Origin: an uncultured Candidatus Saccharibacteria bacterium
Lineage (GTDB): Bacteria; Patescibacteriota; WWE3; UBA101185; UBA10185
Length of the DNA stretch: 64,000 bases
Direction: 5' to 3'
Assembly: GCA_964385105.1 (NCBI GenBank)
Contig: CAYLMU010000001.1
Location: 258,252-322,251, forward strand
The notes below the pieces were generated by a model, which saw only the letters and a program-made list of their open reading frames with translations, did not search any database and was not told the origin of the DNA. Shown here piece after piece: positions 4,522-55,737 of this stretch. Numbering within the stretch: the first letter of the stretch is position 1; each line of letters starts with the position of its first letter. Position numbers and translations under genes: made by a program.

Positions 4522-4929
4522 ATGTTGATGCCAAAAAAAGTAAAATTTAGAAAAGCAATGAGAGGAAATAACAAGGGCATGGCCGTTAGGGGTTCTACTG
4601 TTTCATTTGGTGAATATGCTTTAAAGGCTGAAGAAAGAGGTCTTCTTACATCAAGACAAATTGAGTCGGCAAGAAAAGCTGTGACACACAGAACAAAAAG
4701 AGGCGGAAAATTGTGGATTAGAGTGTTTCCTGATAAGCCTATATCAAAAAAGGCCGCAGAAACAAGAATGGGGGGAGGTAAATCCCCGGTCTCGCACTAT
4801 GCAGCTGTTATCAAACCCGGAAAAATCATCTTTGAGATTTCAGGAGTAACAGAAGAAACAGCTCGTGAAGCATTTAAAATGGCAGCAAATAAACTGCCTA
4901 TTAGAACAAGATTTATAAAGGTAGATTAA
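4522..4929 (+). CDS. rplP: 50S ribosomal protein L16
   Basis: 135 aa; [11 protein letters not shown]..., conserved L16 core. Confidence 0.95.
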
Positions 4930-15520: not shown

Positions 15521-16021
15521 ATGGCACAAGCACAAGATTTACAAACAAGTGAAAACATGGAAATAAAAAAAGGATTTAAATTCTGGAATAATGAAAAAAA
15601 TGCCGGTGAAGATGCTGAAAAAGGCAAGTTCATAATTACCGGAACTGGCAGAAGAAAAACTGCAGTCGCCAGATTATTTTTGTACACAGAAAAAGGCGAT
15701 TTTTTTGTAAACGATAAGCCGATTGACGAATATTTTGAATCTGAACAGGCTAAAGCAACTTGGATGAGGCCTTTTCATGCTGTAGGCATTTCTCACCCCA
15801 TGTCACAATTTAGCGGAACTGTTAAAATTCACGGGTCAGGTAAATCGGCTCAAGCTGACGCACTTATGCTTGCTTTTGCCCGAGCTCTGGATTTAGTAAA
15901 CGAAGAATACTCAAGTGCCATAAGAAAGCAAGGACTATTAACAAGAGATTCAAGAATGGTAGAAAGAAAGAAGCCTTTCTTAAAGAAAGCACGAAAGAGA
16001 CCTCAATACTCTAAACGTTAA
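15521..16021 (+). CDS. rpsI: 30S ribosomal protein S9 with an N-terminal extension of ~35 aa
   Basis: C-terminal ...PQYSKR and GTGRRKTAVARL core; 166 aa versus ~130 typical. Confidence 0.9.
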   Translation: MAQAQDLQTSENMEIKKGFKFWNNEKNAGEDAEKGKFIITGTGRRKTAVARLFLYTEKGDFFVNDKPIDEYFESEQAKATWMRPFHAVGISHPMSQFSGTVKIHGSGKSAQADALMLAFARALDLVNEEYSSAIRKQGLLTRDSRMVERKKPFLKKARKRPQYSKR

Positions 16022-16290
16022 TCAAGAAGTATTCGAATTTCTTCAAGCACAGATTCAACGTCTCTAATTCGTTGTGACAATATTACCTTTTGTTCCCTGG
16101 ATAAATAAAGTATACCTACATTGTATTCGTTTGAGATTTTTTCAAGTACTTTATAAGAAGGAATTACTTTTCCGGTTTCGTAGGCAGATATTGTTTTAGC
16201 GGACACGCCGATTTTTTTGCCAAACCTGTTTTGTGACAGATTGAGCTTTAATCTTAATAATTTTATTCTTGTGCCTACATTTTCATTCAT
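16018..16290 (-). CDS. XRE-family (Cro/CI-type) helix-turn-helix transcriptional regulator
   Basis: 90 aa; IKLLRLKLNLSQNRFGKKIGVSAKTISAYETGK HTH_3 motif; its stop codon overlaps the rpsI stop (convergent). Confidence 0.7.
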   Translation of the reverse strand: MNENVGTRIKLLRLKLNLSQNRFGKKIGVSAKTISAYETGKVIPSYKVLEKISNEYNVGILYLSREQKVILSQRIRDVESVLEEIRILLD

Positions 16291-16311: not shown

Positions 16312-16353
16312 CTATATTGTAATTAATGTTGCAATAACCTATATTGTGATTAT
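16312..16353. promoter_or_regulatory. Two 14-nt direct repeats (CTATATTGTAATTA / CTATATTGTGATTA) in the HTH/radC divergent intergenic region; candidate operators
   Basis: Repeats at 16312-16325 and 16340-16353 seen in the sequence; the second overlaps the radC ATG. Confidence 0.35.
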
Positions 16354-17056
16354 GCAAATGAGTTTAAAAATACATGACCTTCAATCCTCAGAAAAGCCTA
16401 GAGAGAGGCTGTTAAATTATGGTGAATCAATATTATCAGACGCGGAGTTACTTGCAATTATTTTAAGGTCAGGTGGTGTTAAAGGGTCTTCACTTAGTCT
16501 CGCGAGCGTGTTGTTGAAAAAGTTTTCAGGTTTGAATGGTGTAATATTTGCCAGATATGAAGAGTTGGTGGGAATAAAAGACGTAGGCCCTGCAAAGGCA
16601 ACGAGTATTAAGGCAATTTCTGAGATTGCACTTAGATTAAACATGGACAGTAAAGTAAAAAAATTTAAATTATCGGGTCCGCGAGATGTGTTTGTTTACA
16701 TGAAAAAATCCATTTATAAAAAAGAAAAAGAACACCTATATGTTATCTCACTTGATTCAAGAAATTTTGCTATATCTGCAGATTTAGTGTCTGTTGGTAC
16801 AGTAAATGAAACTTTAATTCATCCAAGAGAAGTGTTTCGTGAGGCTATTTATAAAAATGCCACTTATATAATTTTGGCTCATAATCATCCCTCTGGGGAT
16901 ACAAGCCCGAGTGAAGAAGATATACAGGTTACGCACAGATTAGTGGAAACCGGGAAAATTATTGGAATTCCGCTTGTTGATCATGTGATATTAAGCAATG
17001 ACTCATATACAAGCTTAAAGTCAAAAGATTTGATTAATAAAGAGGATAAACAATAA
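16352..17056 (+). CDS. radC: RadC-like JAB/MPN-domain protein (UPF0758 family). The ORF track starts it at 16217; I prefer the ATG at 16352.
   Basis: HhH N-terminus (SDAELLAIILRSG), JAMM motif HNHPSGDTSPSEED. Confidence 0.8.
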   Translation: MQMSLKIHDLQSSEKPRERLLNYGESILSDAELLAIILRSGGVKGSSLSLASVLLKKFSGLNGVIFARYEELVGIKDVGPAKATSIKAISEIALRLNMDSKVKKFKLSGPRDVFVYMKKSIYKKEKEHLYVISLDSRNFAISADLVSVGTVNETLIHPREVFREAIYKNATYIILAHNHPSGDTSPSEEDIQVTHRLVETGKIIGIPLVDHVILSNDSYTSLKSKDLINKEDKQ

Positions 17057-17096
17057 ATGTGAAAAGTAGTAGGTTTTTTTGAAAGGAGGTGAGAAG

Positions 17097-17675
17097 GTGA
17101 AAAAGCTAATTTATGTTTATGCTTCGCTTGCTGCTTTGGTTTTGGTTGTAGCCGGTGTGACGTATGCAGCGTTTTCTGATAAAGGCAACGTGTTAGGTTC
17201 GACTTTTTCTGTAGGCAGTGCGGATATAAAGTTACTAAATGACATAACACAAGGATTGGGTGAGGGTAATCTTGTTGAAGAAAAAGCAGGTCCGAATTTT
17301 AACAACATAAGTCCATTCTGGACGAAAGATTACCTGATGAAAATCTATAACAACGCTGCTACTCAAATTAGTTTAAGTTCCAATTCAAATTATGAGACGG
17401 CAAACGACCCCATGGAGCTTAGACAAATAATATTTGTTGAACCGTTTGAATGGAATGACAACAATAGTGATGGTGTATTGGATGCCGGTGAACTTGGGAC
17501 TTCGTATGGAAGAAAGACAATTGTGAAATGGAAAACCGAGGGTTTTAATTTGGGAAGTGTTGATGCAGGTGCAGTAAAAAGTTTAGTGTTAAGGTTTTCT
17601 ACTGATGCTGTTTCTGACACAAAGCAAGGTGCTAGTGCTTTGTTTGATTTTCAGTTTAGTTCTTTAGGGTTGTAA
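17097..17675 (+). CDS. Secreted protein with a SipW-cognate-class signal peptide (TasA/camelysin-like N-terminus)
   Basis: AAAGGAGG SD then GTG at 17097; N-terminus KKLIYVYASLAALVLVVAGVTYAAFSD matches the (T/V)xAxFxD motif of SipW-dependent signal peptides; the rest is Asn/Ser/Thr/Asp-rich. Confidence 0.5.
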   Translation: MKKLIYVYASLAALVLVVAGVTYAAFSDKGNVLGSTFSVGSADIKLLNDITQGLGEGNLVEEKAGPNFNNISPFWTKDYLMKIYNNAATQISLSSNSNYETANDPMELRQIIFVEPFEWNDNNSDGVLDAGELGTSYGRKTIVKWKTEGFNLGSVDAGAVKSLVLRFSTDAVSDTKQGASALFDFQFSSLGL

Positions 17676-17681
17676 TAAGAA

Positions 17682-17709
17682 ATTCTTGCCTACCCGGGAA
17701 GGCAAGAAT
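17682..17709 (+). promoter_or_regulatory. Perfect 9-bp inverted repeat (ATTCTTGCC - TACCCGGGAA - GGCAAGAAT) between the TasA-like gene and the signal peptidase gene
   Basis: Seen directly in the sequence; no U-tract follows, so it may be an attenuator or processing hairpin rather than a full terminator. Confidence 0.4.
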
Positions 17710-17715
17710 AAATAT

Positions 17716-18174
17716 ATGAAGAAAAAAGTTATACCTATTTTAATATCTCTTTTAATAATATGTGCTTATGTAATTGAGTATAGGCCAATGGTTTATATCA
17801 TTGCTTCAGATTCCATGTCTCCGGTAATTAGAAAAGGAAGCCTTATTGTTGTTGTAAAAAAAGATCAATACTCTTTGTATGATGTTGTAACTTATAAAGT
17901 ATCGTCAAAAATGGATACCTATGTTACACACAGAATTAATAGAATTACTGATATTGAGCAAGCTAAGATGTATTATACAAAAGGTGATGCTAACAAACAC
18001 GAAGATTTTTTGCCTATAACACAGGAAGAAATAATAGGTAAGGTTTATTTTGTTATTCCCTATTTTATATATATATTTCATCCGACTTTGTTATTGATGT
18101 TTTTTTATATGCCTGTTGGGTATTTAGCCGGAAGATTAGTAAAAAAGATTGTGTTATTATCATCGTATGAGTAA
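17716..18174 (+). CDS. Signal peptidase I, archaeal/ER-type (SipW-like, S26B)
   Basis: N-terminal TM then the SDSMSP(V) catalytic Ser box; ~150 aa size typical of SipW/Sec11-type peptidases; the TTG at 17686 used by the ORF track lies inside the hairpin. Confidence 0.7.
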   Translation: MKKKVIPILISLLIICAYVIEYRPMVYIIASDSMSPVIRKGSLIVVVKKDQYSLYDVVTYKVSSKMDTYVTHRINRITDIEQAKMYYTKGDANKHEDFLPITQEEIIGKVYFVIPYFIYIFHPTLLLMFFYMPVGYLAGRLVKKIVLLSSYE

Positions 18175-20746
18175 TTTGCTACCTTTAATTACCAGATTTT
18201 TTGAATGGTATATGGTCTATATACCCAAAAGATTGTTCAAACTGGCTCGGGTTTTAATATCGCTAACAAATAACTCAATGGCCTTTACTCTTAATCTTCG
18301 ACTGTTTTTTACCCCTTTATACGGCGACTATACTTGGATAGGAAGATTTATGGGTTTTACGGTCAGAAGTTTTCAGGTAGTTTTTGGGATACTTTTTTTA
18401 CTTGTAACAACATCCCTGCTTTTATTGTTACCGGTATTCTGGTTTGCTGTTCCAATATTGTTGTTTTATGTGCATGAGAGTTTAGTTTTTGTTTTTTATA
18501 TTGCACTGGCAGCTTATTACTTTTCCACAAATAAAAACCGGCCGGCAAAACGTGTTTATGAGGTTAAAAACGATGATGTAAAGAAGAGTTTTAGACCGTT
18601 AGTTTTGGATTTTTATAATCAATCTATGAGGTCAGGTTCAATGCCCAAAAATCTATTAGCTGAAAAAGATATTGTTTTGCTTTTGAAAAAGTCTGAAATT
18701 TATACCGATGAATTTATGAATAAAGTGGTTGAGGTCAAAGCCGATTTTAATACACTGGATCAAGCTGCATACAAGTATGCCACTGAACACGATTCCAGAT
18801 ATGTTGAAGTGGAGCATTTATTTTTAGGGTTATTAAGTTTATTACCTAAACTCGATGTAACACTGGCAGCATACAATTCGTCATTTCATCTAATTGAAGA
18901 AACGGCCAAATGGATGACATTTGAAAAAGAAAGCTTAAAAAATGTTTATTTCTGGCAGGAAGATTATGAATTGCCTAAAATGGGCGGTATCGGTAGAGGG
19001 TTAACAGGAAGAGTAACTCCCCAGCTTGATTCTGTTTCGGAAGATTTTACCAAACAAGCTCAAAAAGGAATCATCCAAAATATTGTTGCCCATCAAGACA
19101 AAATAAGTGAGGTAATGGAATTGTTGAGCAGTTCCAATAAAAATCTATTGCTAATAGGGCCTCCGGGGTCGGGGAAAACTTCGGTTATTAAGGGTCTGGC
19201 GGAAAGAATTGTAAAAGGAACTGATGTTAAAGGCGTAAAGTTTAAGCGTGTAGTGAGCATCGATACGGCATCACTAATTGCAGGAAGTAAAACGGTTGGT
19301 GATATTGCTCAAAGGTTTAAAAATATAATGTCGGAAATTAAAGCATCAGGTGACGTGATATTGTTTTTTGATGAAATTCATAACCTGGTCGCCGGGGTAC
19401 AGGGCGATAACTCATCAACAATATTTTCAATATTAGAACCGCATTTAACCGAAGGACATATTCAGTTTATTGGTGCAACAAATCTTGAAAATTATAGAAA
19501 ATATCTTGAACCAAGCGGGTCGTTTTCGACTTTGTTTACTACAATAGAAATTCCTCCTGCGTCGGATGAAGATACATTTGGTGTGCTAAAAACCCAAGCA
19601 AAAAAATATGAAAAAGAATATGGCGTTTTTGTTACCTACCCGTCATTGAGAGAAATTATAGTACTTTCAAAAAAACTAATTCACGACCGGGTGTTTCCCG
19701 ACAAAGCACTGGATATTTTAAATAGAGTTTGTGTAACAGCTGCTAAAGGTACAAAAGTTGTTGACTCTGAAACTGTACGTAAAGTCGTATCTGATATAAC
19801 ACATGTTCCCGTTACGTCACTTTCAGAAGACGAATCTCAAAAATTGTTGAATATTGAAAATGAGATTAAGAGCAGAGTCTTAGGACAGGATCATGCAATT
19901 ATTCAAATATCAAAAGCTTTACAAAGAGCAAGAGTGGGAATTAGAAGTGAGGGAAAGCCAATTGCAAGCTTTTTGTTTGTTGGAACTACAGGGGTAGGTA
20001 AAACAGAAACAGCCAAAGCACTTGCTGAAAAGTATTTTGGAAGTGAAAAGAATATGGTGAGAATTGATATGAGCGAATATCAACAACAGGATAGCATAAA
20101 CAGATTAATCGGTGAGCCGGGAGGCCGCACAAAGGGTATACTTACCGAGGCAATCAGGTCAAATCCATATACTTTGATATTGCTTGATGAGATTGAAAAA
20201 GCATATTCAAATATTTTACTTACATTTTTACAAGTTTTAGATGACGGAAGATTAACCGATTCTTCTGGATTTACCGTGGATTTTTCAAATACGATAATTA
20301 TTGCAACCAGTAACGTTGGTACCAGATCGATTCAGGACGTTGTGCAAAGAGGCGGTACATTTGAAGAGATAAATGAGATAGCAATGAGGGATGTTCGAAG
20401 TCATTATGCCCCCGAGTTTCTAAACAGATTTACGGGAATTATTGTATTTAGACCTTTAACTGTAGATGTTGTGAAAAAAATAGCAGAACTTACACTCCAG
20501 AAGGTGCGAATAATGGCTGAGGCTAAAAGTATTAAAGTAAGTTTTAAACCTGAGCTTATAGATGAGCTTGTGAAACGAGGATACAATGTTGAATGGGGTG
20601 CAAGGCCTCTGCGAAGATTAATTGAAGATACAGTTGAGTCTCACTTGGCAATGAAGATATTATCAAAGGATTATATTCAAGGCGATGAAGTAGAAGTGGG
20701 GCTTGAGGTTTTTGAAGAGGAAAGAATACCCACAGCTTTGTTATAA
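18149..20746 (+). CDS. Clp/Hsp100-family two-ring AAA+ ATPase with an N-terminal transmembrane anchor (ClpC/ClpA-like, no obvious M-domain)
   Basis: ~130 aa hydrophobic N-terminus (2-3 TM); Clp_N-like repeat (VEHLFLGLLS); D1 Walker A GPPGSGKTS; D2 Walker A GTTGVGKTETAKALA plus sensor motifs. Confidence 0.8.
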   Translation: MCYYHRMSNLLPLITRFFEWYMVYIPKRLFKLARVLISLTNNSMAFTLNLRLFFTPLYGDYTWIGRFMGFTVRSFQVVFGILFLLVTTSLLLLLPVFWFAVPILLFYVHESLVFVFYIALAAYYFSTNKNRPAKRVYEVKNDDVKKSFRPLVLDFYNQSMRSGSMPKNLLAEKDIVLLLKKSEIYTDEFMNKVVEVKADFNTLDQAAYKYATEHDSRYVEVEHLFLGLLSLLPKLDVTLAAYNSSFHLIEETAKWMTFEKESLKNVYFWQEDYELPKMGGIGRGLTGRVTPQLDSVSEDFTKQAQKGIIQNIVAHQDKISEVMELLSSSNKNLLLIGPPGSGKTSVIKGLAERIVKGTDVKGVKFKRVVSIDTASLIAGSKTVGDIAQRFKNIMSEIKASGDVILFFDEIHNLVAGVQGDNSSTIFSILEPHLTEGHIQFIGATNLENYRKYLEPSGSFSTLFTTIEIPPASDEDTFGVLKTQAKKYEKEYGVFVTYPSLREIIVLSKKLIHDRVFPDKALDILNRVCVTAAKGTKVVDSETVRKVVSDITHVPVTSLSEDESQKLLNIENEIKSRVLGQDHAIIQISKALQRARVGIRSEGKPIASFLFVGTTGVGKTETAKALAEKYFGSEKNMVRIDMSEYQQQDSINRLIGEPGGRTKGILTEAIRSNPYTLILLDEIEKAYSNILLTFLQVLDDGRLTDSSGFTVDFSNTIIIATSNVGTRSIQDVVQRGGTFEEINEIAMRDVRSHYAPEFLNRFTGIIVFRPLTVDVVKKIAELTLQKVRIMAEAKSIKVSFKPELIDELVKRGYNVEWGARPLRRLIEDTVESHLAMKILSKDYIQGDEVEVGLEVFEEERIPTALL

Positions 20747-43340: not shown

Positions 43341-44477
43341 ATGAAAGTTGCAGTTGTAATACCAACTTATAATGAGGCAGAGAATATTAAGCAGTTAATT
43401 CCTGCGCTAAACGATGAGTTTAAAAAAATACCCCAACATGAATGTCATATTTTAATTGTGGACGGAAATTCTCCTGACGGTACCGGAAGTGTCGTAAATG
43501 AACTTAAAGAAGCATATTCCAATGTTCATCTGTTAACCGAAAAAGAGAAAAAAGGTCTTGGGGCAGCATATGTGTATGGGTTTAGGCACGCAATGGATGC
43601 ACTTAGTGCCGATATTATAGTAGAAATGGACGGGGATTTTCAGCACAACCCCGAAGATGTGGCTATTATGCTAAAAGAAATCGATAACGGGTACGATTAT
43701 GTTGTAGGTTCACGATTTATTGCTGGCGGGAGTATTCCCAAAGACTGGGAGTTATATAGAAAATTGTTAAGTTGGGGTGGAAATTTGTTTTCAAAAGTTG
43801 TGCTTGGTATGTGGTCTTTTAATGACTTCACTTCAGGTTTTAAAGCATCACGCGTAGAAGGATTTGCTAACAAACTTGATTTTGATAATATTTTGTCTCA
43901 AGGTTTTGCTTACAAAATTGACCTTTTGTACCGTATGCACAAACTTGGAGCAAAAATAAAAGAAGTTCCAATAACTTTCAGATCACGAGGCAGAGGAGCT
44001 TCAAAAATGGAAAAAAACAACTTTATTGACTCGTTGAAAGTGGTTTTGTTAATAAGAATGAGTGAAAACAAGAATTTTTTTAAATTTGTTATCGTTGGGT
44101 TTTTAGGACTATTTACCGATATTCTATTATCAAACGGTTTTAGACTTACCGACATGGCTCCAAACGTAGCGGCTTCTGTTGCTGCGCTTTGTGCAATGCT
44201 TGTTACATTTTTACTAAATAATTTCTGGTCATTTCGTGATAGGCCAATTAAAAGCAACAAAAAAAGAATCCAGAAGTTTGTTTTATATGTATTGTCGTCA
44301 TTTGTTCCTATAATTTTCAGATATTATTTTGTTGCATATATGATTAGTTTATTTGGTAATACGTTTATTATTTACAATCTTTCACTTTTTGTAAGTATTT
44401 CTTTTGGATTAATCTGGAATTTTACCGTTTACAGCAAAATAATCTGGAAAGAGCAGAATTTGAGTACTTTGGAATAA
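43341..44477 (+). CDS. GT2 polyprenyl-phosphate hexosyltransferase (DPM1/GtrB-like) fused to a C-terminal GtrA-like flippase domain
   Basis: VVIPTYNE...DGNSPDG...EMDGDFQH GT-A motifs; C-terminal 4-TM block typical of GtrA. Confidence 0.8.
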   Translation: MKVAVVIPTYNEAENIKQLIPALNDEFKKIPQHECHILIVDGNSPDGTGSVVNELKEAYSNVHLLTEKEKKGLGAAYVYGFRHAMDALSADIIVEMDGDFQHNPEDVAIMLKEIDNGYDYVVGSRFIAGGSIPKDWELYRKLLSWGGNLFSKVVLGMWSFNDFTSGFKASRVEGFANKLDFDNILSQGFAYKIDLLYRMHKLGAKIKEVPITFRSRGRGASKMEKNNFIDSLKVVLLIRMSENKNFFKFVIVGFLGLFTDILLSNGFRLTDMAPNVAASVAALCAMLVTFLLNNFWSFRDRPIKSNKKRIQKFVLYVLSSFVPIIFRYYFVAYMISLFGNTFIIYNLSLFVSISFGLIWNFTVYSKIIWKEQNLSTLE

Positions 44478-44503
44478 GTAAGTAGAATTAAGTTGGAGGA
44501 TTT

Positions 44504-45256
44504 ATGGAATATTCAATAGTTACGCCCGCATATAATGAAGCCGATAAAATAACTACTACGTTACGTCAGATGCTAGGTTTTATGAGGGAGTACAGTACGG
44601 AATTTGAGATCATTATTGTTGACGACGGTAGTAAAGACAACACAGCTCAAATAGTTGAAGAATACTCAAAAGAAAATCCTGAAGTACGAGTTATTCGCAA
44701 TAAACATAAAGGAAAAGGCCCGGCCGTTTGGAGAGGAATGATGGAAGCACAAGGAGATTTAATTTATATGGCTGACGCCGATCTTGCAACACCTATTTCA
44801 GAACTTAAAAAACTTTCAAACTGGATTAAAGACCATGACTTTGATATTGTAATCGCGTCACGAGAGGGTGTTGGGGCAGTACGGGTAAAAGAGCCTTTTT
44901 ACAGACATTTTGTGGGGCGTGTATTCAACTTTTTAGTACAAACGGTAGCACTTCCCGGAATTAAAGATTCGCAGTGCGGATTTAAACTTTTTAAAAAACA
45001 AGCAGCAAAAGATATTTTTGGTAAGCTTAAGATTTATGGAGACGACGCACCCGAGCGTGACCAGCCGTTTTTTGGTGCATTTGATGTGGAAGTATTGTAT
45101 TTGGCAAAAAAGCTTGGTTATAAGGTAAAAGAATTGCCGGTTACGTGGAATTTTGTAAAAACTCCAAGATTTAATTTTATTTACAATTCATTTAACATGG
45201 CAAAAGATGTATTAAAAGTGCGAATTAACGATATGCGTGGTGTTTATGAAGTGTAA
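44504..45256 (+). CDS. GT2 glycosyltransferase (soluble, DPM1/GtrB-like)
   Basis: IVTPAYNE, IIVDDGSKDNT, DADL(A) DxD-type motif. Confidence 0.8.
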   Translation: MEYSIVTPAYNEADKITTTLRQMLGFMREYSTEFEIIIVDDGSKDNTAQIVEEYSKENPEVRVIRNKHKGKGPAVWRGMMEAQGDLIYMADADLATPISELKKLSNWIKDHDFDIVIASREGVGAVRVKEPFYRHFVGRVFNFLVQTVALPGIKDSQCGFKLFKKQAAKDIFGKLKIYGDDAPERDQPFFGAFDVEVLYLAKKLGYKVKELPVTWNFVKTPRFNFIYNSFNMAKDVLKVRINDMRGVYEV

Positions 45257-45271
45257 TTTATATATTTTACA

Positions 45272-46465
45272 ATGAAAAAAATATTAATTTTTGTACCCGA
45301 ATTTCCTGTGCTAACTGAAACTTTCATAGAGCGTGATATATCAAAGCTAATAGAACTGGGCAATCTTGATATTAATGTTTTGTTTATTAAAAAGGGTAAC
45401 GGTCAAATGTCAAAAAATGTTGAAGACCGTGCTTATTTAATAAATCTTACATATTTTGAAGCTTTGCTGTCACTTGGCTACTTTATTACACACTTTAGCA
45501 GTGTAGTTCAATCTTTTAAATTATGTTTAAGTGATAATACAAAGCTATTGCCAAATAGAGTATTTTTATTTTTAAAATGCCTTGGGTATACCAGGGTTTT
45601 TAGTAAGTACCATCCTGATGAAATTCATGCTCACTTTCTTTCTGACCCTTCTACAATTGGAATGGTTGCATCGATAATGTTAAATATTCCATTTAGTGTG
45701 AGTGCACATGCCAAAGATGTGCTAGTTAATCCGACGCTTCCAAAACAAAAGGCACAAAGAGCAAAATTTATAACATTGTGTAATAAAAATGCCTATACAC
45801 GGGCAATTGAGCTAACACAAAATGAATCCAAAATACACTTAAATTATCATGGAGTTGACCCAAAAAAGCTTTTTTCGCAAAATTTTGAAAAAAAAGCTCA
45901 TGAACGACCGGTGATTTTTTTGGGAGGTACAAGGCTAGTTGAAAAAAAAGGTATTTTGTATGTTGTTGAAGCCTCAAAAACCTTAAAAGAGCGGGGAATA
46001 GCTCATCAAATGAGTGTTGTTGGTCCGGGGCCTCTTTTTGATGAAATAAAAGCCAAAATATCGGAATATGGGCTTGAAAATAACTTTTTTGTTCATGGAG
46101 ACGGTAAAGGTTTACCATTTGAAAAAGTGTCAGAATTGTATCTTGATGCAGACATATTTGTTTATGCCGGAATAAACACGTCCGAGGGTGATGCTGACGG
46201 CATACCAAATGTTTTAATCGAGGCAGCATTTGCAAAACTTCCAATAATTACAACAAATGCAGGCAGTATTTCAGAATTTGTTAATTCAAACAATGGAATC
46301 ATAATCCCGCAAAAAGATCCTTATGCCATAGCCGATTCTGTTGAAAGGTTAATATTTGATGAAGCTTTAAGAGTTGAACTAGGTAATAAAGTTTTTGAAA
46401 AGGCAAGTGCAATGTTTAACATAGAAAAAAATGTTAAAGAGTTAGAAGCACTTTTGTTAAAATAA
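45272..46465 (+). CDS. GT4-family glycosyltransferase (GT-B)
   Basis: C-terminal Glycos_transf_1 motifs (EGDADGIPNVLIEAAFAKLPIITT). Confidence 0.72.
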   Translation: MKKILIFVPEFPVLTETFIERDISKLIELGNLDINVLFIKKGNGQMSKNVEDRAYLINLTYFEALLSLGYFITHFSSVVQSFKLCLSDNTKLLPNRVFLFLKCLGYTRVFSKYHPDEIHAHFLSDPSTIGMVASIMLNIPFSVSAHAKDVLVNPTLPKQKAQRAKFITLCNKNAYTRAIELTQNESKIHLNYHGVDPKKLFSQNFEKKAHERPVIFLGGTRLVEKKGILYVVEASKTLKERGIAHQMSVVGPGPLFDEIKAKISEYGLENNFFVHGDGKGLPFEKVSELYLDADIFVYAGINTSEGDADGIPNVLIEAAFAKLPIITTNAGSISEFVNSNNGIIIPQKDPYAIADSVERLIFDEALRVELGNKVFEKASAMFNIEKNVKELEALLLK

Positions 46466-46468
46466 ATC

Positions 46469-47662
46469 ATGCGCATTGCTGTTTTTATTAAAAACACAAC
46501 ACATCATCAAAGTTATGGCGGTTTTGAAACCCAAAACAAAATTTTATGTGAAGGGCTTTCTGCGCGTGGTCATGAAGTTATAGTTTTTTCACCAAAAAAA
46601 GAACTCACAACAGAAAAAATAAGAGAGAACGGGGTAGAATACGTGTTTATTGACTGTATATTCAAAAAATTCAATCTTTTATATGAAAAAAGTGATAAAT
46701 CATGGCAGAATCGCTCTTATAAAACTTTTACGCAATTTCACAACCAAAGTAAATTTGATGTGATAATAAGCCAGAGTAGTTGGGGTTTGGGTGTAATTAA
46801 AAGAAAAGATGTTCATAAAGTTCCTGTTGTTTCAGTTTCACACGGGAGCAAAATAGGAGAATATAAAACCCGCATTCAAAGCGCAGTTTCAATAAAAGAC
46901 TACATTAGAATTGCAATTGATATTCCTCATGTGTTGTATGCTTTTTTTGTTACTCAAAGACGATTTCTTCATGGTTCCGACAATGTTGTAGCAGTGTCCA
47001 GTTCGGTAAAAAAACAAATTGTATCTGAAGCTTTTTTGCCGGAGCAAAAAGTAGTTGTAATTCATAACGGAATACATCCGCCATCAATAAACCTTAATTT
47101 GCAAAAAAACAGTAACAATGTGGAAATTTTGTATGTGGGAAGAATTCTTAGAGAAAAAGGTTTGTTTGCTTTGGTCGATGTTTTGGAAAAACTAATTAGT
47201 TTGGATTTAGAAGTAAATTTGAATTTGGTGGGAGAGGGCAATGACACTGAAGCACTTAAAAAATATGTGAGTGACAAAAGTCTTATTAAATATATTAATT
47301 TAGAGGGTAAATTGTCGTACACTGATGTTATAAACAGAATGGCACAGGCTGATATTTTTGTGTTACCTTCACTTAGGGTTGAAGGGTTTCCTATGACTAT
47401 TGTTGAAGCAATGTTTGCCGGATTGCCTGTTGTGGCATCCGATATAGGAGGAAATGCGGATGCGGTTGTTGATGGGGATACAGGATATTTGGTTGAGCCG
47501 GGCAATGTAGACTCACTTACAGAAAAACTTGAGCAATTAGTAAAAAACAAGGATGAAAGGTTGAGAATGGGTAAAAATGCACAAAATAAAGCTCAAAGTG
47601 AATTTACACAAGATATAATGATAGATAAGTATTTATCTGTTTTAACCGGAGTTATGAAATGA
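46469..47662 (+). CDS. GT4-family glycosyltransferase (GT-B)
   Basis: EGFPMTIVEAMFAGLPVVASDIGGNADAV canonical GT4 E-x7-E region. Confidence 0.8.
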   Translation: MRIAVFIKNTTHHQSYGGFETQNKILCEGLSARGHEVIVFSPKKELTTEKIRENGVEYVFIDCIFKKFNLLYEKSDKSWQNRSYKTFTQFHNQSKFDVIISQSSWGLGVIKRKDVHKVPVVSVSHGSKIGEYKTRIQSAVSIKDYIRIAIDIPHVLYAFFVTQRRFLHGSDNVVAVSSSVKKQIVSEAFLPEQKVVVIHNGIHPPSINLNLQKNSNNVEILYVGRILREKGLFALVDVLEKLISLDLEVNLNLVGEGNDTEALKKYVSDKSLIKYINLEGKLSYTDVINRMAQADIFVLPSLRVEGFPMTIVEAMFAGLPVVASDIGGNADAVVDGDTGYLVEPGNVDSLTEKLEQLVKNKDERLRMGKNAQNKAQSEFTQDIMIDKYLSVLTGVMK

Positions 47663-48855
47663 AAATAGTTAGAGTAATTTATGACTGGCCTCCACCATGG
47701 TATGGTCTGTCACCACATCCTTACGAGCTTACACTGGCTCAGGTAAAAGCAGGGCATGAGGTTGAAGTGTTTTGTGGCCGCTGGCCAAAAGCCGGCCCTG
47801 TGGAAACTTTTGACGGCGTAAATGTGCATGCTTATATGCGTGAGCCCTTTAAAGGATTAATTTTTTTTACTACAGCTTTGTTGGCATTTTTTGGTTTTCG
47901 TAAATGGAAGAAAAGAAACACCTATGATATTTTGCATGTACATGGGCATATGGGGATTTGGTTCTTTTTGCATAGGCATTTGTTAAAAAAATATAAAAAA
48001 AACTCACCGCAGCTTAAAATCCCGCTTGTTGCACATTTTCACAATACTATTGAGGGACGAAAACATGCACTACTGGAAAAAGGTGAAACTCCAAGCTTTA
48101 TATCAAGCAAACTGGAATGGCCATTGGCAAGATATTCAGATATGCTGGCTGTAAAAAATGCTGATGCGCTAATTTTTGCAGGAGAAGAAATAAAGGATGA
48201 AGCAATTAAATATTATGGAGCTGATGCAAATAAGTGTTACGTTGTTGAGTCGGGTGTAAATACTGATGAATTTCATTCTGTAGGGGCTGAAGAAAAAGGT
48301 AAAACGCGCAGTGAACTGGGTTTTGACCATACCGACATAGTAGTTTTAAATCACGGGTATATGGTTGAACGAAAAAACATACATTCATTGGTTGAAGCAT
48401 TTAAATACTTGCCCGAACAATACCGTTTGTTTTTGGTGGGTCCGTTTGATAGCGATGATTATAGATTTAAGATAAATACGTTAATTGAAGAAAATAAACT
48501 ACAAGAAAAAGTCACTATGACGGGGTATGTACCTTATCCCGAAACACCTATTGCTTTTCAGGCTTCTGATTTGTTTGTTTTACCGTCGTCGTTTGAAGGT
48601 GTACCTAAGGTGGTAATGCAAAGCCTTTCATGCGGTGTGCCGGCACTGGTATCAGGTTTTAGGCTAAATGAAGAAATTCAAGGTTTGAAATACCTTGATA
48701 CACAAGATCCAAAAGAAATTGCAGATCAAATAGTTAATACTTTTACCAATTATCCGGCTGTAGATGTTGCAAAAGTGCAAAGTCTTTACTCATGGAAAAC
48801 AAGAGCCAGATTAATAGATGAAATTTATGCATCTCTTAAACAAAATATATCTTAA
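47659..48855 (+). CDS. GT4-like glycosyltransferase (GT-B)
   Basis: FEGVPKVVMQSLSCGVPALVS C-terminal motif; start overlaps the previous stop. Confidence 0.68.
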   Translation: MKIVRVIYDWPPPWYGLSPHPYELTLAQVKAGHEVEVFCGRWPKAGPVETFDGVNVHAYMREPFKGLIFFTTALLAFFGFRKWKKRNTYDILHVHGHMGIWFFLHRHLLKKYKKNSPQLKIPLVAHFHNTIEGRKHALLEKGETPSFISSKLEWPLARYSDMLAVKNADALIFAGEEIKDEAIKYYGADANKCYVVESGVNTDEFHSVGAEEKGKTRSELGFDHTDIVVLNHGYMVERKNIHSLVEAFKYLPEQYRLFLVGPFDSDDYRFKINTLIEENKLQEKVTMTGYVPYPETPIAFQASDLFVLPSSFEGVPKVVMQSLSCGVPALVSGFRLNEEIQGLKYLDTQDPKEIADQIVNTFTNYPAVDVAKVQSLYSWKTRARLIDEIYASLKQNIS

Positions 48856-50401
48856 TTTAAAGCCTATTCACATTTTTGCGTTGTTTGTGTTTTTTCATTT
48901 GCTCTTGCTGAATTTCAATGCTGCTGAATGGGGTGATAGTTATAGGATTCTTCGAGCTACGGAGTTTATTAAAAACGATTTTACTTACCCTGAAGATGAA
49001 AAAAGACCACCATTATATTCGCTGGTTTTGGCATTTAGGCCTCAAAATATTGATGCAGTGCTGTGGGGGCGTCTTACAATGTTTGTTGTTAGTATTTTAG
49101 CCTTTGTGGTTTTTTATAGACTTTTGCAAAAAATTTTTCCGGACGACCTGAAAAAACAGCTACTTGGATTGCTTTTATTCACATTAAATCCCGTTTATCT
49201 ATATTGGTCTATAAGAATTATGTCGGATGTGTTTTTTTCGCTTATTATACTTACGGGTATTTATTATTACGAAAGTTATAAACACAAAATTAGGCCGAAA
49301 AACGCAGTTGTATTAGGTATTTTAGCGGGATTAGCAATTCTCACACGTTTTGAAGGTTTTATATTGTTTGGGGCTTTTGGTCTGGGATTGTTATATACAG
49401 AATCTTTCAATCTCAAAAAATTTACCCGACAAATAGCAAAAAATCTGAAAACTTTATTTTTTTACGTTATTTCAGCGTTTGCGGTACTTTTACCTTATTG
49501 GCTTTATAGAAACCCGCTTGATTCAACGTATTTTGAGGAACCTGCAAGCCGAACTTATGATTTAAATACAATTTTAATATTTCTAGGTTCGTTATTTTTT
49601 GTATTTGGATTTGTTTATGCATTTTATTTTATATTCCAAAATCGCCGGTCGGTTATTAAATTTTTATCAAGTCACATCGCAATATCTGCTTTTATTTTTG
49701 TTGAGCTTATATTAATACTTGCATGGCCTGCAGCAATTCCAAGGTTATTTGTACCTATAATACCTTTTTTAATAATTATTCTGGCTGATTCTATAATCGA
49801 ATTCTTTTTTAACAATACGCAAAATAAAATAAAAATACATGATGTAATACTGCTTGGGTTTTTATTGATAGCTTTTTTGGGAATTCAATATGTTTATAAG
49901 TTGCAATTTCTCATTTTAATCAAGCCGGTTCTGGGAGCTGTGGTAGTATTGTCAGTCTTTCAGGCTTTAGCTATATACAAAAAAAATTATAACCTCTTTT
50001 TGTTTTTGCTTATTCCCATTTTAACACTTTGGTCGTTTGCAACCATTTATATCCACAAAGATATTTTTGCCGTAATAAAAGAAGCAAATGTTTATGTGAT
50101 AAATAATCTTGAGGGAAGAGTGGGATATAATGACATAAGTAGCGTATCCGATTGGTATTTAAATCAGCGCAATAAAAACGATGACGTTGAAGGATTTTAC
50201 TATGACCTCACAAATCGTTCTAATCGAACGTATGAGAAGCTTATTGAAAACAATGTAGATTATATAACTGTCACCAATGAACACAATACAACAACAGAAC
50301 TTGACTTAGACGATTGGGAACACCTTGAAGTGATTAAAGAATTTAAAAAAGAAATTAACGGGAAAGAGTTTTGGACAAGAATTATTAAGTTTAACAAGTA
50401 G
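48818..50401 (+). CDS. GT-C-fold polytopic glycosyltransferase (ArnT/PMT_2-like)
   Basis: >10 TM; N-terminal periplasmic-loop motif GDSYRILRATEFIKN...DEKRPPLY resembling PMT_2/ArnT. Confidence 0.5.
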   Translation: MKFMHLLNKIYLNLKPIHIFALFVFFHLLLLNFNAAEWGDSYRILRATEFIKNDFTYPEDEKRPPLYSLVLAFRPQNIDAVLWGRLTMFVVSILAFVVFYRLLQKIFPDDLKKQLLGLLLFTLNPVYLYWSIRIMSDVFFSLIILTGIYYYESYKHKIRPKNAVVLGILAGLAILTRFEGFILFGAFGLGLLYTESFNLKKFTRQIAKNLKTLFFYVISAFAVLLPYWLYRNPLDSTYFEEPASRTYDLNTILIFLGSLFFVFGFVYAFYFIFQNRRSVIKFLSSHIAISAFIFVELILILAWPAAIPRLFVPIIPFLIIILADSIIEFFFNNTQNKIKIHDVILLGFLLIAFLGIQYVYKLQFLILIKPVLGAVVVLSVFQALAIYKKNYNLFLFLLIPILTLWSFATIYIHKDIFAVIKEANVYVINNLEGRVGYNDISSVSDWYLNQRNKNDDVEGFYYDLTNRSNRTYEKLIENNVDYITVTNEHNTTTELDLDDWEHLEVIKEFKKEINGKEFWTRIIKFNK

Positions 50402-50418
50402 GGTATAATTATTTAGAT

Positions 50419-51111
50419 ATGAAATTGTCCATTGTTATGCCGGTTTATAATGAAAAAGACACTTTGGTCAAAATACTTGATTTAATTCAAGATGTAAACT
50501 TAGGTGAAGTAGAAAAAGAAGTTGTTTTAGTTGATGATGCTTCAACTGACGGAACTACAGAAATATTAAAAAAGTTAAGCAACGAGAATCCGCAATATAA
50601 GGTTATTTTCAAACAAACAAACGAAGGAAAAGGTTTTGCACTTAGAGACGGGTTTAAGGTATCAACTGGTAATTATGTAATAGTTCAGGATGCAGATTTG
50701 GAATATGATCCCAATGACTATGTAAAATTGCTAAATGCGTTAAATACACAAAATGTTGATGTTGTTTATGGCTCACGTTTTTCGGGAAATTATAAGGATA
50801 TGTCGAGTTTGCACTATGTAGGTAATAAATTTCTGACTTTTGCTACAAATATATTGTATGGCGTTAAACTCACAGATATGGAAACTTGTTATAAGTTAAT
50901 TCCGGGGGATTTTATTAGAAATATGGAAATAAAAGCAGCAAGATTTAATTTTGAGCCCGAGATTACGGCAAAAATTTTAAAATCGGGAATGAATATTGGC
51001 GAGGTTTCCATAAACTATCACGGACGTTCACATGCCGAAGGTAAAAAAATTACCTGGAGAGACGGAATTTCGGCATTATGGACACTTATAAAATTTAGAT
51101 TCACAAACTAA
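50419..51111 (+). CDS. GT2 polyprenyl-phosphate sugar synthase (DPM1/GtrB-like, 230 aa)
   Basis: IVMPVYNE, LVDDASTDGT, QDADLEYDP. Confidence 0.8.
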   Translation: MKLSIVMPVYNEKDTLVKILDLIQDVNLGEVEKEVVLVDDASTDGTTEILKKLSNENPQYKVIFKQTNEGKGFALRDGFKVSTGNYVIVQDADLEYDPNDYVKLLNALNTQNVDVVYGSRFSGNYKDMSSLHYVGNKFLTFATNILYGVKLTDMETCYKLIPGDFIRNMEIKAARFNFEPEITAKILKSGMNIGEVSINYHGRSHAEGKKITWRDGISALWTLIKFRFTN

Positions 51112-53252
51112 TGAAAAATATATTCATAAAATTTAGGGAAAATTTTTTTGTTATTGCGCTTTTGTGTTTCATGTTAGGAGTGTTTGCAATCTCTGTAAGA
51201 ATAAACCTTTTTAGGTATAACAACTTTGATTATGGAAAATTTGACCTTGGTAATATGACCCAAATGGTGTGGAATACTTTACACGGAAGAGTTCTTTACA
51301 TGACTGATTATTTTGGAACAAATCTTCCTCGATGGTCAATGAGCCATGTTGACCCTATTTTACTTGTTTTTGTGCCGGTCTTTGCTTTGTTTCAGCATCC
51401 GTTGACTTTAGTTTTTTCACAAATAATACTTGTTTTGCTTTCTGCTCTAATAATTTATAAGATTGCTCTTTTGGAACTTAAGTCTAAATTTGCTGCGATG
51501 GCTTTTGGCTTGTCATTTTTGCTATATCCGGCTGTAGGATTTTTAATTGCATGGACAGGGTTTCATGGAGTAACCGCTGTTATACCGTTTTTCTTGCTGG
51601 CTTTTTACACTTTTGAAAAGATGTTTCACACAAAAAACTTTACTCGTCGTGGTGTTATTTTGTTTTGGATCTTTTTGATTCTAACTATGATGGGTAAAGA
51701 GCAGCTTCCGTTATATATTGTGATGTATGGGTTTTTTATAATTTTATTTAGGTTTGTTGAGCCTCTGCCTTTCCCGTCATGGGAAAATCTAAGTTCATGG
51801 TTTAAAGGCCTGTGGAAACACATAAATGTGAGAATTGGAACTGCCATGGTAATTGTTGGACTATTGTGGTTTTATATAGCTTTTTTTGTTGTAATTCCGG
51901 CATATTCTGATTTACGTGCACAGGGGTTTCAAAAATTTGCTGAAACCATGCGTATAGATCCCGATTCAGTAAGAGATGTAGATAGTGATAATTATTTTAT
52001 TAGTCGGTATGAGGCTTTCGGCGATACTTACACTGAGGTAATCTGGGGAATGATTACACATCCTAAAGAATTAGTGCTAATAAGTTTAGGTGGAGACAAA
52101 CCCGACAATTTAAAAAAGACTCTTGAGCCTATGATGTACACTTCTGTACTATATCCGCCGCTTTTTATAATTGCATTTCCGGACTTTTTAATTAATTATG
52201 CTACTTCTGCGGGGGGAATCGGTACTTCTGAAATTATAAATCATAGAATTTCTATGATTGTGCCTGTAGTTTTTATATCAAGTATTTATTCGATAGGGTT
52301 ATTGGCATATCTGGCATCCTCAATAACAAAACTCGACAAACGCTATTTAGTAATTGGCTTGTCGGGAGCTGTGTTGCTTGGAAATATTTATACTACCTTT
52401 CAATATAATAATCCTATTTATTTGTGGTTAACACAGGCCGTATCAAAAAGAATTCCTGTTTTGGCCAAGTCTGATACACAGATAATAAAAGAAAATATTG
52501 AAATAGGTGACAGGTTTACGCTTTCAAAACTGGAAACAAAAGATCGGGAATGTGCGGAAAAAATAGTTAGGATGATTCCTGATGATGCGTCGGTGTCAGG
52601 ACCTGATTATTTAGGTGCGCATTTATCAATGAGAGAAACTTATGCTATATTCCCAGCTTTATACAACGAAGCTGATTACGTGATTGTTGATGTTTTTTCA
52701 CAAAAAATCCTAAGAATTCTTGATGCTGATTTAACCTTAGTGCGTGACGTGGTATCTGACATTATAAAAGCTGAAGATTACGGCTTTAAACTTGGCTGCG
52801 GAAATCTTTTTGTCTTTGAAAAAACTCCAAATGCATCAAAATCAATGTTATTACCGCTTCAAGAAAGATATCAGTATGAGGAGCAGGTTAATTTGGAAAT
52901 ATTTGAAAGTCTAACAGTGGTAGATTATGAATTTCCTCAAGAAATGAAGAAAAACACTGTTTATGATGCTCAAATTGTGTATGTAAAAAAAGAAGAAAAA
53001 CGACTTGATGACTACGTATTATTTTTAACATTTATTAACAGCGAGTCGGGAGAAATTTATCAGGTGGCAAACTTACCTTCATTTGCATTAAACCAACTTC
53101 GAAATTGGCCTGAAGATATGTACTTTATTGAAAATCTGCAAATTGCGCCGCCTGAATTTTTAGCCACAGGTACTTATAAAGTTTTTATCGGTATGTCAAA
53201 CGAAATTAGAACCAGAAGTATTTATTTAGGCGATGCAGAAATTGTACAATGA
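51111..53252 (+). CDS. Large polytopic membrane protein with a ~300-aa extracytoplasmic C-terminal domain (GT-C-like architecture, possibly DUF2079-like)
   Basis: ~400-aa multi-TM N-terminus (FDLGNMTQMVWNTLHG loop) then a soluble domain; no STT3 WWDYG motif. Confidence 0.42.
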   Translation: MKNIFIKFRENFFVIALLCFMLGVFAISVRINLFRYNNFDYGKFDLGNMTQMVWNTLHGRVLYMTDYFGTNLPRWSMSHVDPILLVFVPVFALFQHPLTLVFSQIILVLLSALIIYKIALLELKSKFAAMAFGLSFLLYPAVGFLIAWTGFHGVTAVIPFFLLAFYTFEKMFHTKNFTRRGVILFWIFLILTMMGKEQLPLYIVMYGFFIILFRFVEPLPFPSWENLSSWFKGLWKHINVRIGTAMVIVGLLWFYIAFFVVIPAYSDLRAQGFQKFAETMRIDPDSVRDVDSDNYFISRYEAFGDTYTEVIWGMITHPKELVLISLGGDKPDNLKKTLEPMMYTSVLYPPLFIIAFPDFLINYATSAGGIGTSEIINHRISMIVPVVFISSIYSIGLLAYLASSITKLDKRYLVIGLSGAVLLGNIYTTFQYNNPIYLWLTQAVSKRIPVLAKSDTQIIKENIEIGDRFTLSKLETKDRECAEKIVRMIPDDASVSGPDYLGAHLSMRETYAIFPALYNEADYVIVDVFSQKILRILDADLTLVRDVVSDIIKAEDYGFKLGCGNLFVFEKTPNASKSMLLPLQERYQYEEQVNLEIFESLTVVDYEFPQEMKKNTVYDAQIVYVKKEEKRLDDYVLFLTFINSESGEIYQVANLPSFALNQLRNWPEDMYFIENLQIAPPEFLATGTYKVFIGMSNEIRTRSIYLGDAEIVQ

Positions 53253-54802: not shown

Positions 54803-55737
54803 TGAATAAAAAAGCGTTGCTAAAAGTTGTTATAAGTTCTGTTTTGCTGTTCATAACACTTAATAATGTTGACTTAGAACAATTGGTTCTAAATTTTAGG
54901 CAGTTCGAACTAATTTATATACCTTTGATTGTAGGGTTTTTATTGTTGAACTATGTTATCAGCTCGGTGAGATGGAAAAAACTTTTAATTTTTGAGAATT
55001 CACAAAAGGCTTCACTGTCGTATTTGATGAATTTATATTTTGTTGGGGCGTTTTTTAACAATTTCATGCCCACAAGCATTGGTGGGGATGTTTATAAAGT
55101 GTACAAATTAGGAAACAAAATAGGTAGCAAAGCAAATGCTTTTTCAGCCACATTTATGGAGCGATTCACAGGTATGGTGGCTTTAGTACTGATTTCATAC
55201 TTTGGTATTGTAAAAACCTGGAGTATTTGGCTATCTTTTTTACCCCAAGAAATTGCCCAAAGTAATTTATTGTTAACTATGTTTAAACTGATGATATTTT
55301 TAGGCTTTTGGGTCGGTGCCGTAGCTGCATTTGTGTTTTTGAAAATTTTGGCCAAAAAATCAAAGAAATTAAAAAAACTTTATGAATCAATAATGGTTTA
55401 TAAAAAAGAAAAAGAAGTTATGTTCTGGGCTTTTTTAACATCTTTTGTTGTACAGCTAATTTCTATTTTCACACAATTTTTTATATTTAAGGGGCTTAAC
55501 GTTGACATGAACATTTGGTATGCATTAGCAGTATTTCCTGTTATTACACTTGCAAGCTTTTTTATACCTTCTCTCAATGGAATCGGTGTTCAAGATGCAA
55601 TGTATAATCAGATTTTCACTGCTGGAGGTATAACTACAAGTACAATAGCTTTAAGCGCTTCAATTATTTATCATTTATTTAGATTATTTGTCAGTTTGAT
55701 TGGCGGATTTATTTATGCATTTAACAAAAATACTTAA
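54802..55737 (+). CDS. UPF0104 / MprF-N-terminal-like flippase-domain membrane protein
   Basis: RWKKLL...NNFMPTSIGGDVYKVYKL pattern of the LPG_synthase_TM family; 8 TM. Confidence 0.52.
   Translation: MNKKALLKVVISSVLLFITLNNVDLEQLVLNFRQFELIYIPLIVGFLLLNYVISSVRWKKLLIFENSQKASLSYLMNLYFVGAFFNNFMPTSIGGDVYKVYKLGNKIGSKANAFSATFMERFTGMVALVLISYFGIVKTWSIWLSFLPQEIAQSNLLLTMFKLMIFLGFWVGAVAAFVFLKILAKKSKKLKKLYESIMVYKKEKEVMFWAFLTSFVVQLISIFTQFFIFKGLNVDMNIWYALAVFPVITLASFFIPSLNGIGVQDAMYNQIFTAGGITTSTIALSASIIYHLFRLFVSLIGGFIYAFNKNT

Follow-up and report, generated by a model that had tools for sequence, protein, structure and literature searches.

Results

A TasA-superfamily gene beside a SipW-type signal peptidase gene

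The stretch analysed here, hereafter the window, comprises 64,000 nucleotides (nt; 64 kb) of contig CAYLMU010000001.1, and this report concerns two adjacent plus-strand genes within it, one for a small secreted protein, which we call the cargo and which profile comparison places in the TasA superfamily, and one for a signal peptidase I of the SipW type. The cargo gene extends from 17097 (GTG) to 17675 and specifies a preprotein of 192 amino acids (aa); its open reading frame (ORF), its homologues, HHalign comparison, AlphaFold2 modelling and fold matching together point to a WWE3-specific branch of the superfamily. It is followed by a hairpin (17682 to 17709, plus strand) and then by the peptidase gene (17716, ATG, to 18174, plus strand; 152 aa). 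GTG 17097 and ATG 17716 are taken as the true starts because homologues begin MKK.... An initial annotation of 17097-18174 had placed both ORFs and the hairpin at these positions and had called the genome one of the candidate phyla radiation (CPR) type; the homologue search agrees, as the relatives of the cargo belong to candidate division WWE3 / Patescibacteria. That observation is confirmed, and the results below support most of the interpretation then attached to it.

Hydropathy reveals a single hydrophobic segment in the cargo (residues 1-28), and both hydropathy and the SipW-cognate signal model TIGR04088 predict a signal peptide at residues 1-24 (MKK, a hydrophobic core and VTYA; 17097 to 17168, plus strand), the region around its end, residues 18-30, reading ...VAGVTYAAFSDKG.... 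The TIGR04088 match, which spans residues 9-33, scored 19.7 bits against a cut-off of 19 (E = 7e-4), so that the SipW-cognate signal originally read from the N-terminus passed the model, marginally. By analogy, cleavage would fall between TYA and AFSD and leave A25 as the first mature residue; in TasA the cut lies between WA and AFND, and mature TasA begins AFND. The pattern T.A.F[ST], typical of a SipW-type signal, occurs at one secretory N-terminus only in the 64 kb, that of the cargo.

The cargo family numbers at least 264 proteins of 55-68% identity, whose names refer to candidate division WWE3 / Patescibacteria. Among the representatives of a library clustered at 50% identity, only about 50 had E < 1e-10, and these grade into proteins of about 200 aa that share the ...TYAAF(S/T)... 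N-terminus; more distant relatives carry the SipW-dependent-type signal naming from NCBI and JGI. In the P0149/P0385 cluster we noted a relative from a metagenome-assembled genome (MAG) of the archaeal Bathyarchaeia, 33-36% identical to the cargo and named 'SipW-dependent-type signal peptide-containing protein' by NCBI, and the nearest relatives outside WWE3 may be cross-domain.

A Pfam scan of the cargo returned no family, only a sub-threshold DUF4179. Twelve of 70 aligned relatives matched PF12389 (Peptidase_M73, TasA/camelysin), with a best E of 4.1e-16, and HHalign of the WWE3 family against the PF12389-containing relatives gave a probability of 100% (E = 4e-48). When a profile of relatives was compared with solved structures, AbpX (9sj2) was reached at E = 0.0012 and TasA (5OF1/8AUR) at E = 0.04-0.05; AbpX was the best sequence match in the PDB but a weak one (E = 0.11 with profile A1, 0.0012 with profile A3). 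The PDB sequence search with the cargo alone produced nothing beyond a calmodulin-like kinase, an EF-hand match judged to be due to chance, which nevertheless pointed to the loop described below. On these profile comparisons we assign the cargo to the TasA superfamily, among whose recognised members are TasA, AbpX, AbpA, CanA, the 0406 threads and Tafi, outside Pfam family PF12389 proper. Since PF12389 misses the WWE3 branch and TIGR04088 catches it marginally, WWE3 cargo proteins are mostly annotated as 'hypothetical'.

One homologue bears the UniRef name 'Camelysin metallo-endopeptidase', and this, together with the Peptidase_M73 title of the Pfam family that cargo relatives match, would make the cargo a camelysin-like metalloprotease. 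The mature protein, however, contains no His and no Cys, and therefore no HExxH or comparable zinc site, and the solved relatives of the cargo are structural fibres. We rejected this identity, for which hardly any likelihood is left.

The peptidase is of the archaeal and endoplasmic reticulum (ER) type

The peptidase, which carries SDSMSP, passed the archaeal/ER-type model TIGR02228 with 81.8 bits (cut-off 51.85; E = 4.6e-23), while the bacterial LepB-type model TIGR02227 gave 27.4 bits, below its cut-off of 47. The S26B/Sec11/SipW assignment first made from the SDSMSP box is thereby upheld, and the LepB-type identity that had been named as its counter-hypothesis is not. The Bacillus SipW equivalog NF046067 scored 61.2 bits, below its cut-off of 190, and by these scores the enzyme is of the same type as Bacillus SipW, not an orthologue-level match. 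Its best sequence matches among solved structures are human SEC11C and SEC11A: S33 (in SDSMSP), H72 (in THRI) and D91/D97 (in KGDANKHED) align to the SEC11A/C boxes SGSMEP, HRV and KGDNN..DD, and S33, M34, T71, H72, R73, K89, G90, D91, N93 and D97 are invariant across 18 WWE3 orthologues. Taken together, the TIGR02228 score, the SEC11A/C alignment and hydropathy identify it, by type, as a Ser-His-Asp signal peptidase I of the S26B/Sec11/SipW group, in contrast to LepB-type (S26A) enzymes, which use a Ser-Lys dyad. The boxes SxSMxP, THR(I/V) and KGDxNxxxD are common to SEC11A/SEC11C, archaeal signal peptidase I (S26B) and the WWE3 enzyme. Unlike SEC11A/C, the latter is stand-alone, with no complex subunits, and very short (152 aa). 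Two hydrophobic segments (residues ~4-24 and 110-131+) suggest that it is probably a two-transmembrane protein and not the single-spanning one described in the initial annotation.

The mature cargo is predicted to be a jelly-roll with a donor strand and a calcium loop

The mature cargo (168 aa, 18.2 kDa) is acidic, with an isoelectric point (pI) of 4.45 and 12.5% Asp plus Glu, close to the family medians (pI 4.35, 14%). AlphaFold2 models were all-beta, with predicted local distance difference test scores (pLDDT) of 94.6 (full length) and 91.1 (mature), so that a beta jelly-roll is predicted with high confidence. Foldseek gave only weak, mixed matches when the signal helix was retained, and it was rerun with the mature protein. 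The first PDB match was then the TasA fibre 8AUR, determined by electron cryomicroscopy (E = 5e-5, probability 1.0, TM-score 0.52), followed by Pyrodictium cannulae, the Saci_0406 thread of Sulfolobus, AbpA bundling pili and chaperone-usher pilins; the archaeal filaments CanA (9h8b, 7uii), AbpA (7ueg) and Saci_0406 (7pnb) stood at ranks 2, 8 and 9. All specific solved fold matches of the mature cargo are donor-strand polymers. The archaeal filaments have much lower similarity to the cargo, detectable by structure only, and their loci use a generic signal peptidase; such donor-strand filaments are described as polymerising without a chaperone, and cannulae as using Ca2+. The TasA-like jelly-roll proposed at the outset is hence borne out at the level of the superfamily, with 8AUR as top fold match and the HHalign result, though not by a direct PF12389 match.

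Conservation and the pLDDT of the mature model mark the N-terminal extension of the mature protein, AFSDKGNVLGSTFSV (17169 to 17213, plus strand), as a candidate donor strand. Among 38 WWE3 homologues F26 never varies and D28 is kept in at least 90%, and the best-conserved stretch of the cargo, TFSVGSADIKL, which comes after A-F-S-D, aligns to ATFASGTLDLS of TasA. With Bacillus subtilis TasA the cargo thus shares both the end of the signal, ...A followed after the cut by AF(N/S)D, and the succeeding TF(A/S)xG(T/S)xD(L/I) strand. In the model of the mature form the first 14 residues have pLDDT < 50 and are unplaced, as would be expected if the extension completes the fold of a neighbouring subunit; in the full-length model the N-terminal strands fold back onto the same chain.

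Residues 121-133 form an EF-hand-like loop, DNNSDGVLDAGEL (17457 to 17495, plus strand), detected by PROSITE pattern PS00018 and predicted to be a Ca2+ site. Of the 38 WWE3 homologues, 20 have the strict pattern and 32 have a relaxed form of it, and D121, G126 and E132 are invariant. An exhaustive search matched this region to multi-repeat giant proteins, and both of those examined were SdrD_B-repeat proteins. The likeness is to the EF-hand loops of the SdrD B-repeat (PF17210): the match between the cargo and repeats of SdrD_B-assigned proteins lies in the W-x-D-x-N-x-D-G-x-x-D-x-G-E loop region, and only this region, not the domain, is shared.

These structural data also bear on the possibility that the cargo has TasA ancestry and forms no polymer, acting instead as a secreted or wall-associated monomeric Ca2+-binding beta-sandwich, for instance an adhesin or an envelope protein. 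Such a protein would account for the full-length model, in which the N-terminal strands lie on their own chain, for the resemblance of the loop to SdrD_B adhesin repeats, for a TasA fold match that is only moderate, and for a locus that offers no accessory, tip or anchor subunit. Yet no part of the family is better conserved than the N-terminal motif that supplies the donor strand in TasA and AbpX, the N-terminus is left unplaced once the signal peptide is removed, and every specific solved match is a donor-strand polymer; we therefore hold the monomer to be unlikely, while giving it some weight.

The pairing is recurrent in Patescibacteria and variable in WWE3

For comparison we used 65 loci of GTDB species representatives, retrieved via conserved cargo peptides from a WWE3-only alignment; nearly all are labelled WWE3 or Patescibacteria. 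The order rpsI, XRE-family regulator (minus strand), RadC-like gene, cargo gene, SipW gene where present, ClpB-like gene and prfB is syntenic across WWE3; of 68 loci, 58 have the RadC-like gene 5' of the cargo gene and 57 have the ClpB-like gene after the cargo or SipW gene. A SipW orthologue directly follows the cargo gene at 27 of the 65 species-representative loci. Where it is missing, the ClpB-like gene begins within 4-130 nt of the cargo gene or after a short non-coding gap, and no SipW remnants were detectable 3' of the cargo gene. A SipW gene adjoins the cargo gene at none of the 18 loci with a cargo sharing 60% identity or more with that of the window, which makes the window genome unusual among its nearest relatives. 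The signal motif of the cargo, G(V/I)(T/A)xAAF(T/S/G)DK, is the same with and without SipW. The survey of related genomes suggested in the initial annotation accordingly recovered the pairing, in a form that is not universal.

Searches for SipW relatives found 10 proteins with the single sequence and 580 with a profile of 18 orthologues. In all three other contexts sampled (a Shapirobacteria contig, a Portnoybacteria contig and a third contig) a SipW-type peptidase lay beside proteins with SipW-type signals, some of which match PF12389 and the cargo profile; judged by these gene neighbourhoods, peptidase-cargo pairing is common in Patescibacteria. The Shapirobacteria locus (L069, 3223-5572) has in a row a 209-aa protein with a SipW-type signal, a SipW gene, a 201-aa protein and a second SipW paralogue.

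Conservation was expressed as the median identity to the window proteins over the surveyed loci. At 55.8% (57.1% for the mature part) the cargo is as conserved across WWE3 as ribosomal proteins, a figure inflated to an unquantified degree by the selection of loci via cargo motifs; the corresponding medians were 60% for S9, 56% for L17, 53% for RpoA and 51% for L13, then 50% for the ClpB-like protein, 46% for RadC, 45% for the XRE regulator and 35.5% for SipW. Polymer interfaces that constrain a subunit would be expected to produce such conservation. Many of the relatives labelled 'uncultured Candidatus Saccharibacteria' (L005, L006, L010, L013-L015 and others) carry the WWE3-type cargo and synteny, and in these automated MAG submissions the Saccharibacteria label is probably generic or wrong.

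The same survey supplies most of the case for regarding the peptidase as the general housekeeping signal peptidase of a reduced genome, next to the cargo gene through inherited gene order and not as a dedicated partner. The whole block from rpsI to prfB is syntenic across WWE3, SipW is missing at the locus in 38 of 65 species with the cargo signal unchanged, it evolves fast (36% median identity) when the cargo does not, and the 64-kb window holds no other signal peptidase. On the other side, three unrelated Patescibacteria contexts again pair this peptidase type with proteins that have SipW-type signals or match PF12389, the cargo signal passes the SipW-cognate model, and the pairing repeats the well-known Bacillus arrangement. 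A purely housekeeping role thus appears improbable, somewhat more so than the monomeric cargo discussed above.

A hairpin is kept at the 3' end of the cargo gene

The window hairpin (17682 to 17709, plus strand) consists of the stem ATTCTTGCCT/AGGCAAGAAT, of 10 bp where 9 bp had been counted before, and the 8-nt loop ACCCGGGA. It begins 7 nt past the cargo stop codon, ends 7 nt ahead of the sipW ATG and has a folding free energy of -13.8 kcal/mol (z = -2.8; 3 of 200 shuffled sequences fold as well); no U-tract follows it on the plus strand, and no Rfam family was found at the hairpin or anywhere in the window.

We examined the 60 nt after the cargo stop codon at 66 loci, the window included, with a threshold of -12 kcal/mol or lower. 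Forty-nine loci passed (median about -18 kcal/mol), compared with 15 of 66 for an intragenic control segment (median -8.8 kcal/mol). Stable hairpins were present at 19 of 28 loci with SipW and 30 of 38 without it, and because it is kept in either case the hairpin is a property of the cargo 3' end, not of the cargo-SipW junction.

The sequence CCCGGG occurs within 100 nt of the cargo stop codon at 16 of 66 loci, about 0.8 being expected, and at 15 of them (the window and L006, L007, L014, L018-L020, L022, L027, L038, L041, L046, L048, L053 and L067) it forms the hairpin apex, on covarying stems that differ fully from one another, with 3-6 pair types at each stem position. Elsewhere in 562 kb only 2 marginal cases of a CCCGGG-apex hairpin were seen, and the other CCCGGG sites of the window are in no hairpins. 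A covariance model built from five CCCGGG hairpins found seven more, including that of the window (E = 3e-4), and had no match away from the post-cargo position in the 562 kb. It is conceivable that the palindromic apex serves loop-loop pairing or a dimeric binding factor.

At L006, L007, L012, L014, L020, L039, L055 and L057, which are without SipW, a T-run is followed by TGATAT(C/T)CT or TGCTATCCT. This combination sits about 40-90 nt past the cargo stop codon, between the hairpin and the ClpB-like gene, and is absent from the window; its sequence suggests a terminator tail and then a separate extended -10 promoter. A reading of the 3' arm as a sequestered Shine-Dalgarno sequence of the downstream gene was dropped, the spacing to start codons being inconsistent. 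At L011 a long poly-G run (~4560-4620) comes after the post-cargo hairpin and is probably an assembly artefact.

The hairpin had been thought to set the stoichiometry of cargo to peptidase. An alternative, to which we give somewhat better than even chances, is that it is a 3'-end element of the cargo transcript (a terminator, a stabiliser or a factor-binding site) and no SipW dosage tuner. The frequency of the hairpin, 30 of 38 loci where SipW is absent and 19 of 28 where SipW follows as compared with 15 of 66 for the intragenic control, argues for this, as do the T-run and the -10-like TGATATYCT ahead of the ClpB-like gene where SipW is missing, the CCCGGG apex retained on unrelated stems irrespective of SipW, and the specificity of the covariance model for this position within 562 kb. 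In the window, by contrast, the hairpin is without a U-tract and stops 7 nt before the sipW ATG, and neither SipW nor the ClpB-like gene shows a promoter of its own, so that read-through must occur; an effect on SipW dosage is a likely local consequence. Control of stoichiometry is accordingly plausible in this genome and is not the conserved function.

Neighbouring genes

A RadC-like JAB-domain gene (16352 to 17056, plus strand; Pfam RadC, E = 8.8e-42) lies immediately 5' of the cargo gene. The spacer between them is 40 nt in the window and contains a strong Shine-Dalgarno sequence, read directly from the letters as AGGAGGTGA (17083 to 17091, plus strand), 5 nt ahead of the cargo GTG. In several relatives the two genes overlap by 4-11 nt (L002, 4304-5011/5001-5588; L003, 4288-5004/5001-5579), an arrangement that suggests co-transcription and translational coupling.

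Divergent from RadC-cargo, a gene for a 90-aa XRE-family helix-turn-helix (HTH) regulator (16018 to 16290, minus strand; Pfam HTH_3, E = 1.1e-15) keeps its position in relatives and recalls the XRE-type repressor beside tapA-sipW-tasA in Bacillus; SinR is the XRE-family regulator near that operon, and a nearby regulator of this family would be a feature shared with B. subtilis.

On the 3' side, a ClpB/ClpC-like double-AAA+ protein of 859 aa is encoded at 18167 to 20746 (plus strand; Pfam AAA, AAA_lid_9, AAA_2 and ClpB_D2-small), its ATG overlapping the sipW stop codon in ATGAGTAA (18167-18174). In this protein the Clp N-domain is replaced by some 120 N-terminal residues, in which hydropathy shows three hydrophobic segments. 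Such a putative membrane-anchored unfoldase, fixed beside the gene of a candidate secreted fibre protein, may or may not have a functional link to it.

No second peptidase and no cargo paralogue were found in the 64-kb window. Farther along, a 20-kb block of envelope-glycan genes (43341-63252, plus strand) includes a family 2 glycosyltransferase (GT2) with a GtrA domain, three tandem family 4 glycosyltransferases (GT4; 397-398 aa), PMT_2-like membrane glycosyltransferases, DUF2079, a polysaccharide flippase and a second GT2, and is ordinary-looking.

Discussion

The closest precedent for the locus is the tapA-sipW-tasA operon of B. subtilis (TasA 8AUR/5OF1), which likewise has an ER/archaeal-type signal peptidase gene beside that of a jelly-roll matrix subunit. 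Unlike that operon, the WWE3 locus is without TapA and has the cargo gene first and the peptidase gene second. The mature WWE3 subunit is shorter (168 aa versus ~233 aa for TasA) and has the EF-hand-like loop in addition; unlike TasA the cargo goes undetected by PF12389, and the WWE3 peptidase, at 152 aa, reaches 61 bits against the 190-bit cut-off of NF046067. The initial annotation had compared the pair with a Bacillus system that builds 'amyloid' fibres, a description now outdated: TasA fibres are described as donor-strand-exchange polymers and not as classical amyloid (PMC9674648).

A second precedent is AbpX of Pyrodictium abyssi (9sj2, 9rhp). AbpX-like proteins are acidic, with a pI of about 4 and about 15% Asp plus Glu, and an aromatic residue 2 with an acidic residue 4 is their donor-strand signature (bioRxiv 10.64898/2026.01.04.697558). 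The cargo shares with AbpX the acidic pI, the small size and, given the inferred cleavage, the aromatic-2/acidic-4 mature N-terminus, F26/D28 fitting that signature in sequence. The same preprint reports that the TasA superfamily is frequently linked to signal peptidase I genes; it surveyed RefSeq and makes no mention of Patescibacteria (bioRxiv 10.64898/2026.01.04.697558). AbpX loci reportedly encode a dedicated peptidase with ten transmembrane helices, as against the two hydrophobic segments of the WWE3 enzyme, and, unlike AbpX loci, the WWE3 locus has no DUF5305, minor-subunit, tip or anchor genes. The putative Ca2+ site also differs, in that the WWE3 protein has a canonical EF-hand-type loop and not the donor-strand interface alone.

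Patescibacteria are listed among the phyla with PF12389 TasA homologues by Wang et al. 2022 (PMC9245690). That survey concerns the same phylum and superfamily and is PF12389-based, so that the WWE3 branch escapes it, and it contains no locus description, SipW pairing or Ca2+ loop. In the literature library searched, no paper treating the WWE3 cargo family was found.

We propose, with moderate confidence, that the pair of genes is a minimal module for the secretion and processing of an extracellular TasA-superfamily protein that assembles into a donor-strand fibre. After Sec export, the peptidase would cut the cargo between TYA and AFSD, and the cut would free the N-terminal extension A-F-S-D...TFSVGSADIKL to insert as donor strand into the next subunit, the subunits thereby polymerising, with no chaperone, into fibres of the surface or matrix. 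Ca2+ would probably assist, through the EF-hand-like loop and/or the acidic donor-strand residue 4, as is the case in AbpX and the cannulae. The hairpin that ends the cargo message would lower the expression of sipW and of the ClpB-like gene relative to that of the structural subunit, because both genes lie 3' of it with no room for a promoter.

Several observations weigh against this proposal. The TIGR04088 cut-off is passed by 0.7 bits only, and VTYA followed by A is acceptable also as an ordinary signal-peptidase-I site. PF12389 gave no match to the cargo itself at E <= 1, and the match to 8AUR is moderate (TM-score 0.52, root-mean-square deviation 9 Å). No TapA-like, tip or anchor subunit was found at the locus. 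The selection of loci via cargo motifs favours the cargo in the comparison with ribosomal proteins, and the dependence of the cargo on this peptidase is unproven, because 38 of 65 species have no adjoining SipW and an identical cargo signal.

A broader picture, speculative and in its entirety unlikely, would have the WWE3 cargo as the core Ca2+-dependent surface fibre of the lineage, a single-subunit, chaperone-free donor-strand polymer conserved for attachment to host or matrix, with an mRNA controlled by the 3' CCCGGG-apex hairpin, an element not described before, which a factor would bind or which would act via loop-loop contacts. The aspects to carry forward are the conservation and fixed position of the subunit, the EF-hand-like loop, the variable SipW and the CCCGGG-apex hairpin.

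The system to which the WWE3 cargo belongs is already known in kind, and the cargo adds to it a new branch that had not been annotated before; it also extends the TasA/AbpX superfamily into a bacterial lineage missed by RefSeq-based surveys. Little is known of the surface structures of CPR/Patescibacteria cells other than type IV pili, and attachment is central to their presumed episymbiotic life. With its fixed position in the core genome, its conservation and its Ca2+-loop, the cargo is a concrete and easily expressed candidate for the main extracellular fibre of WWE3.

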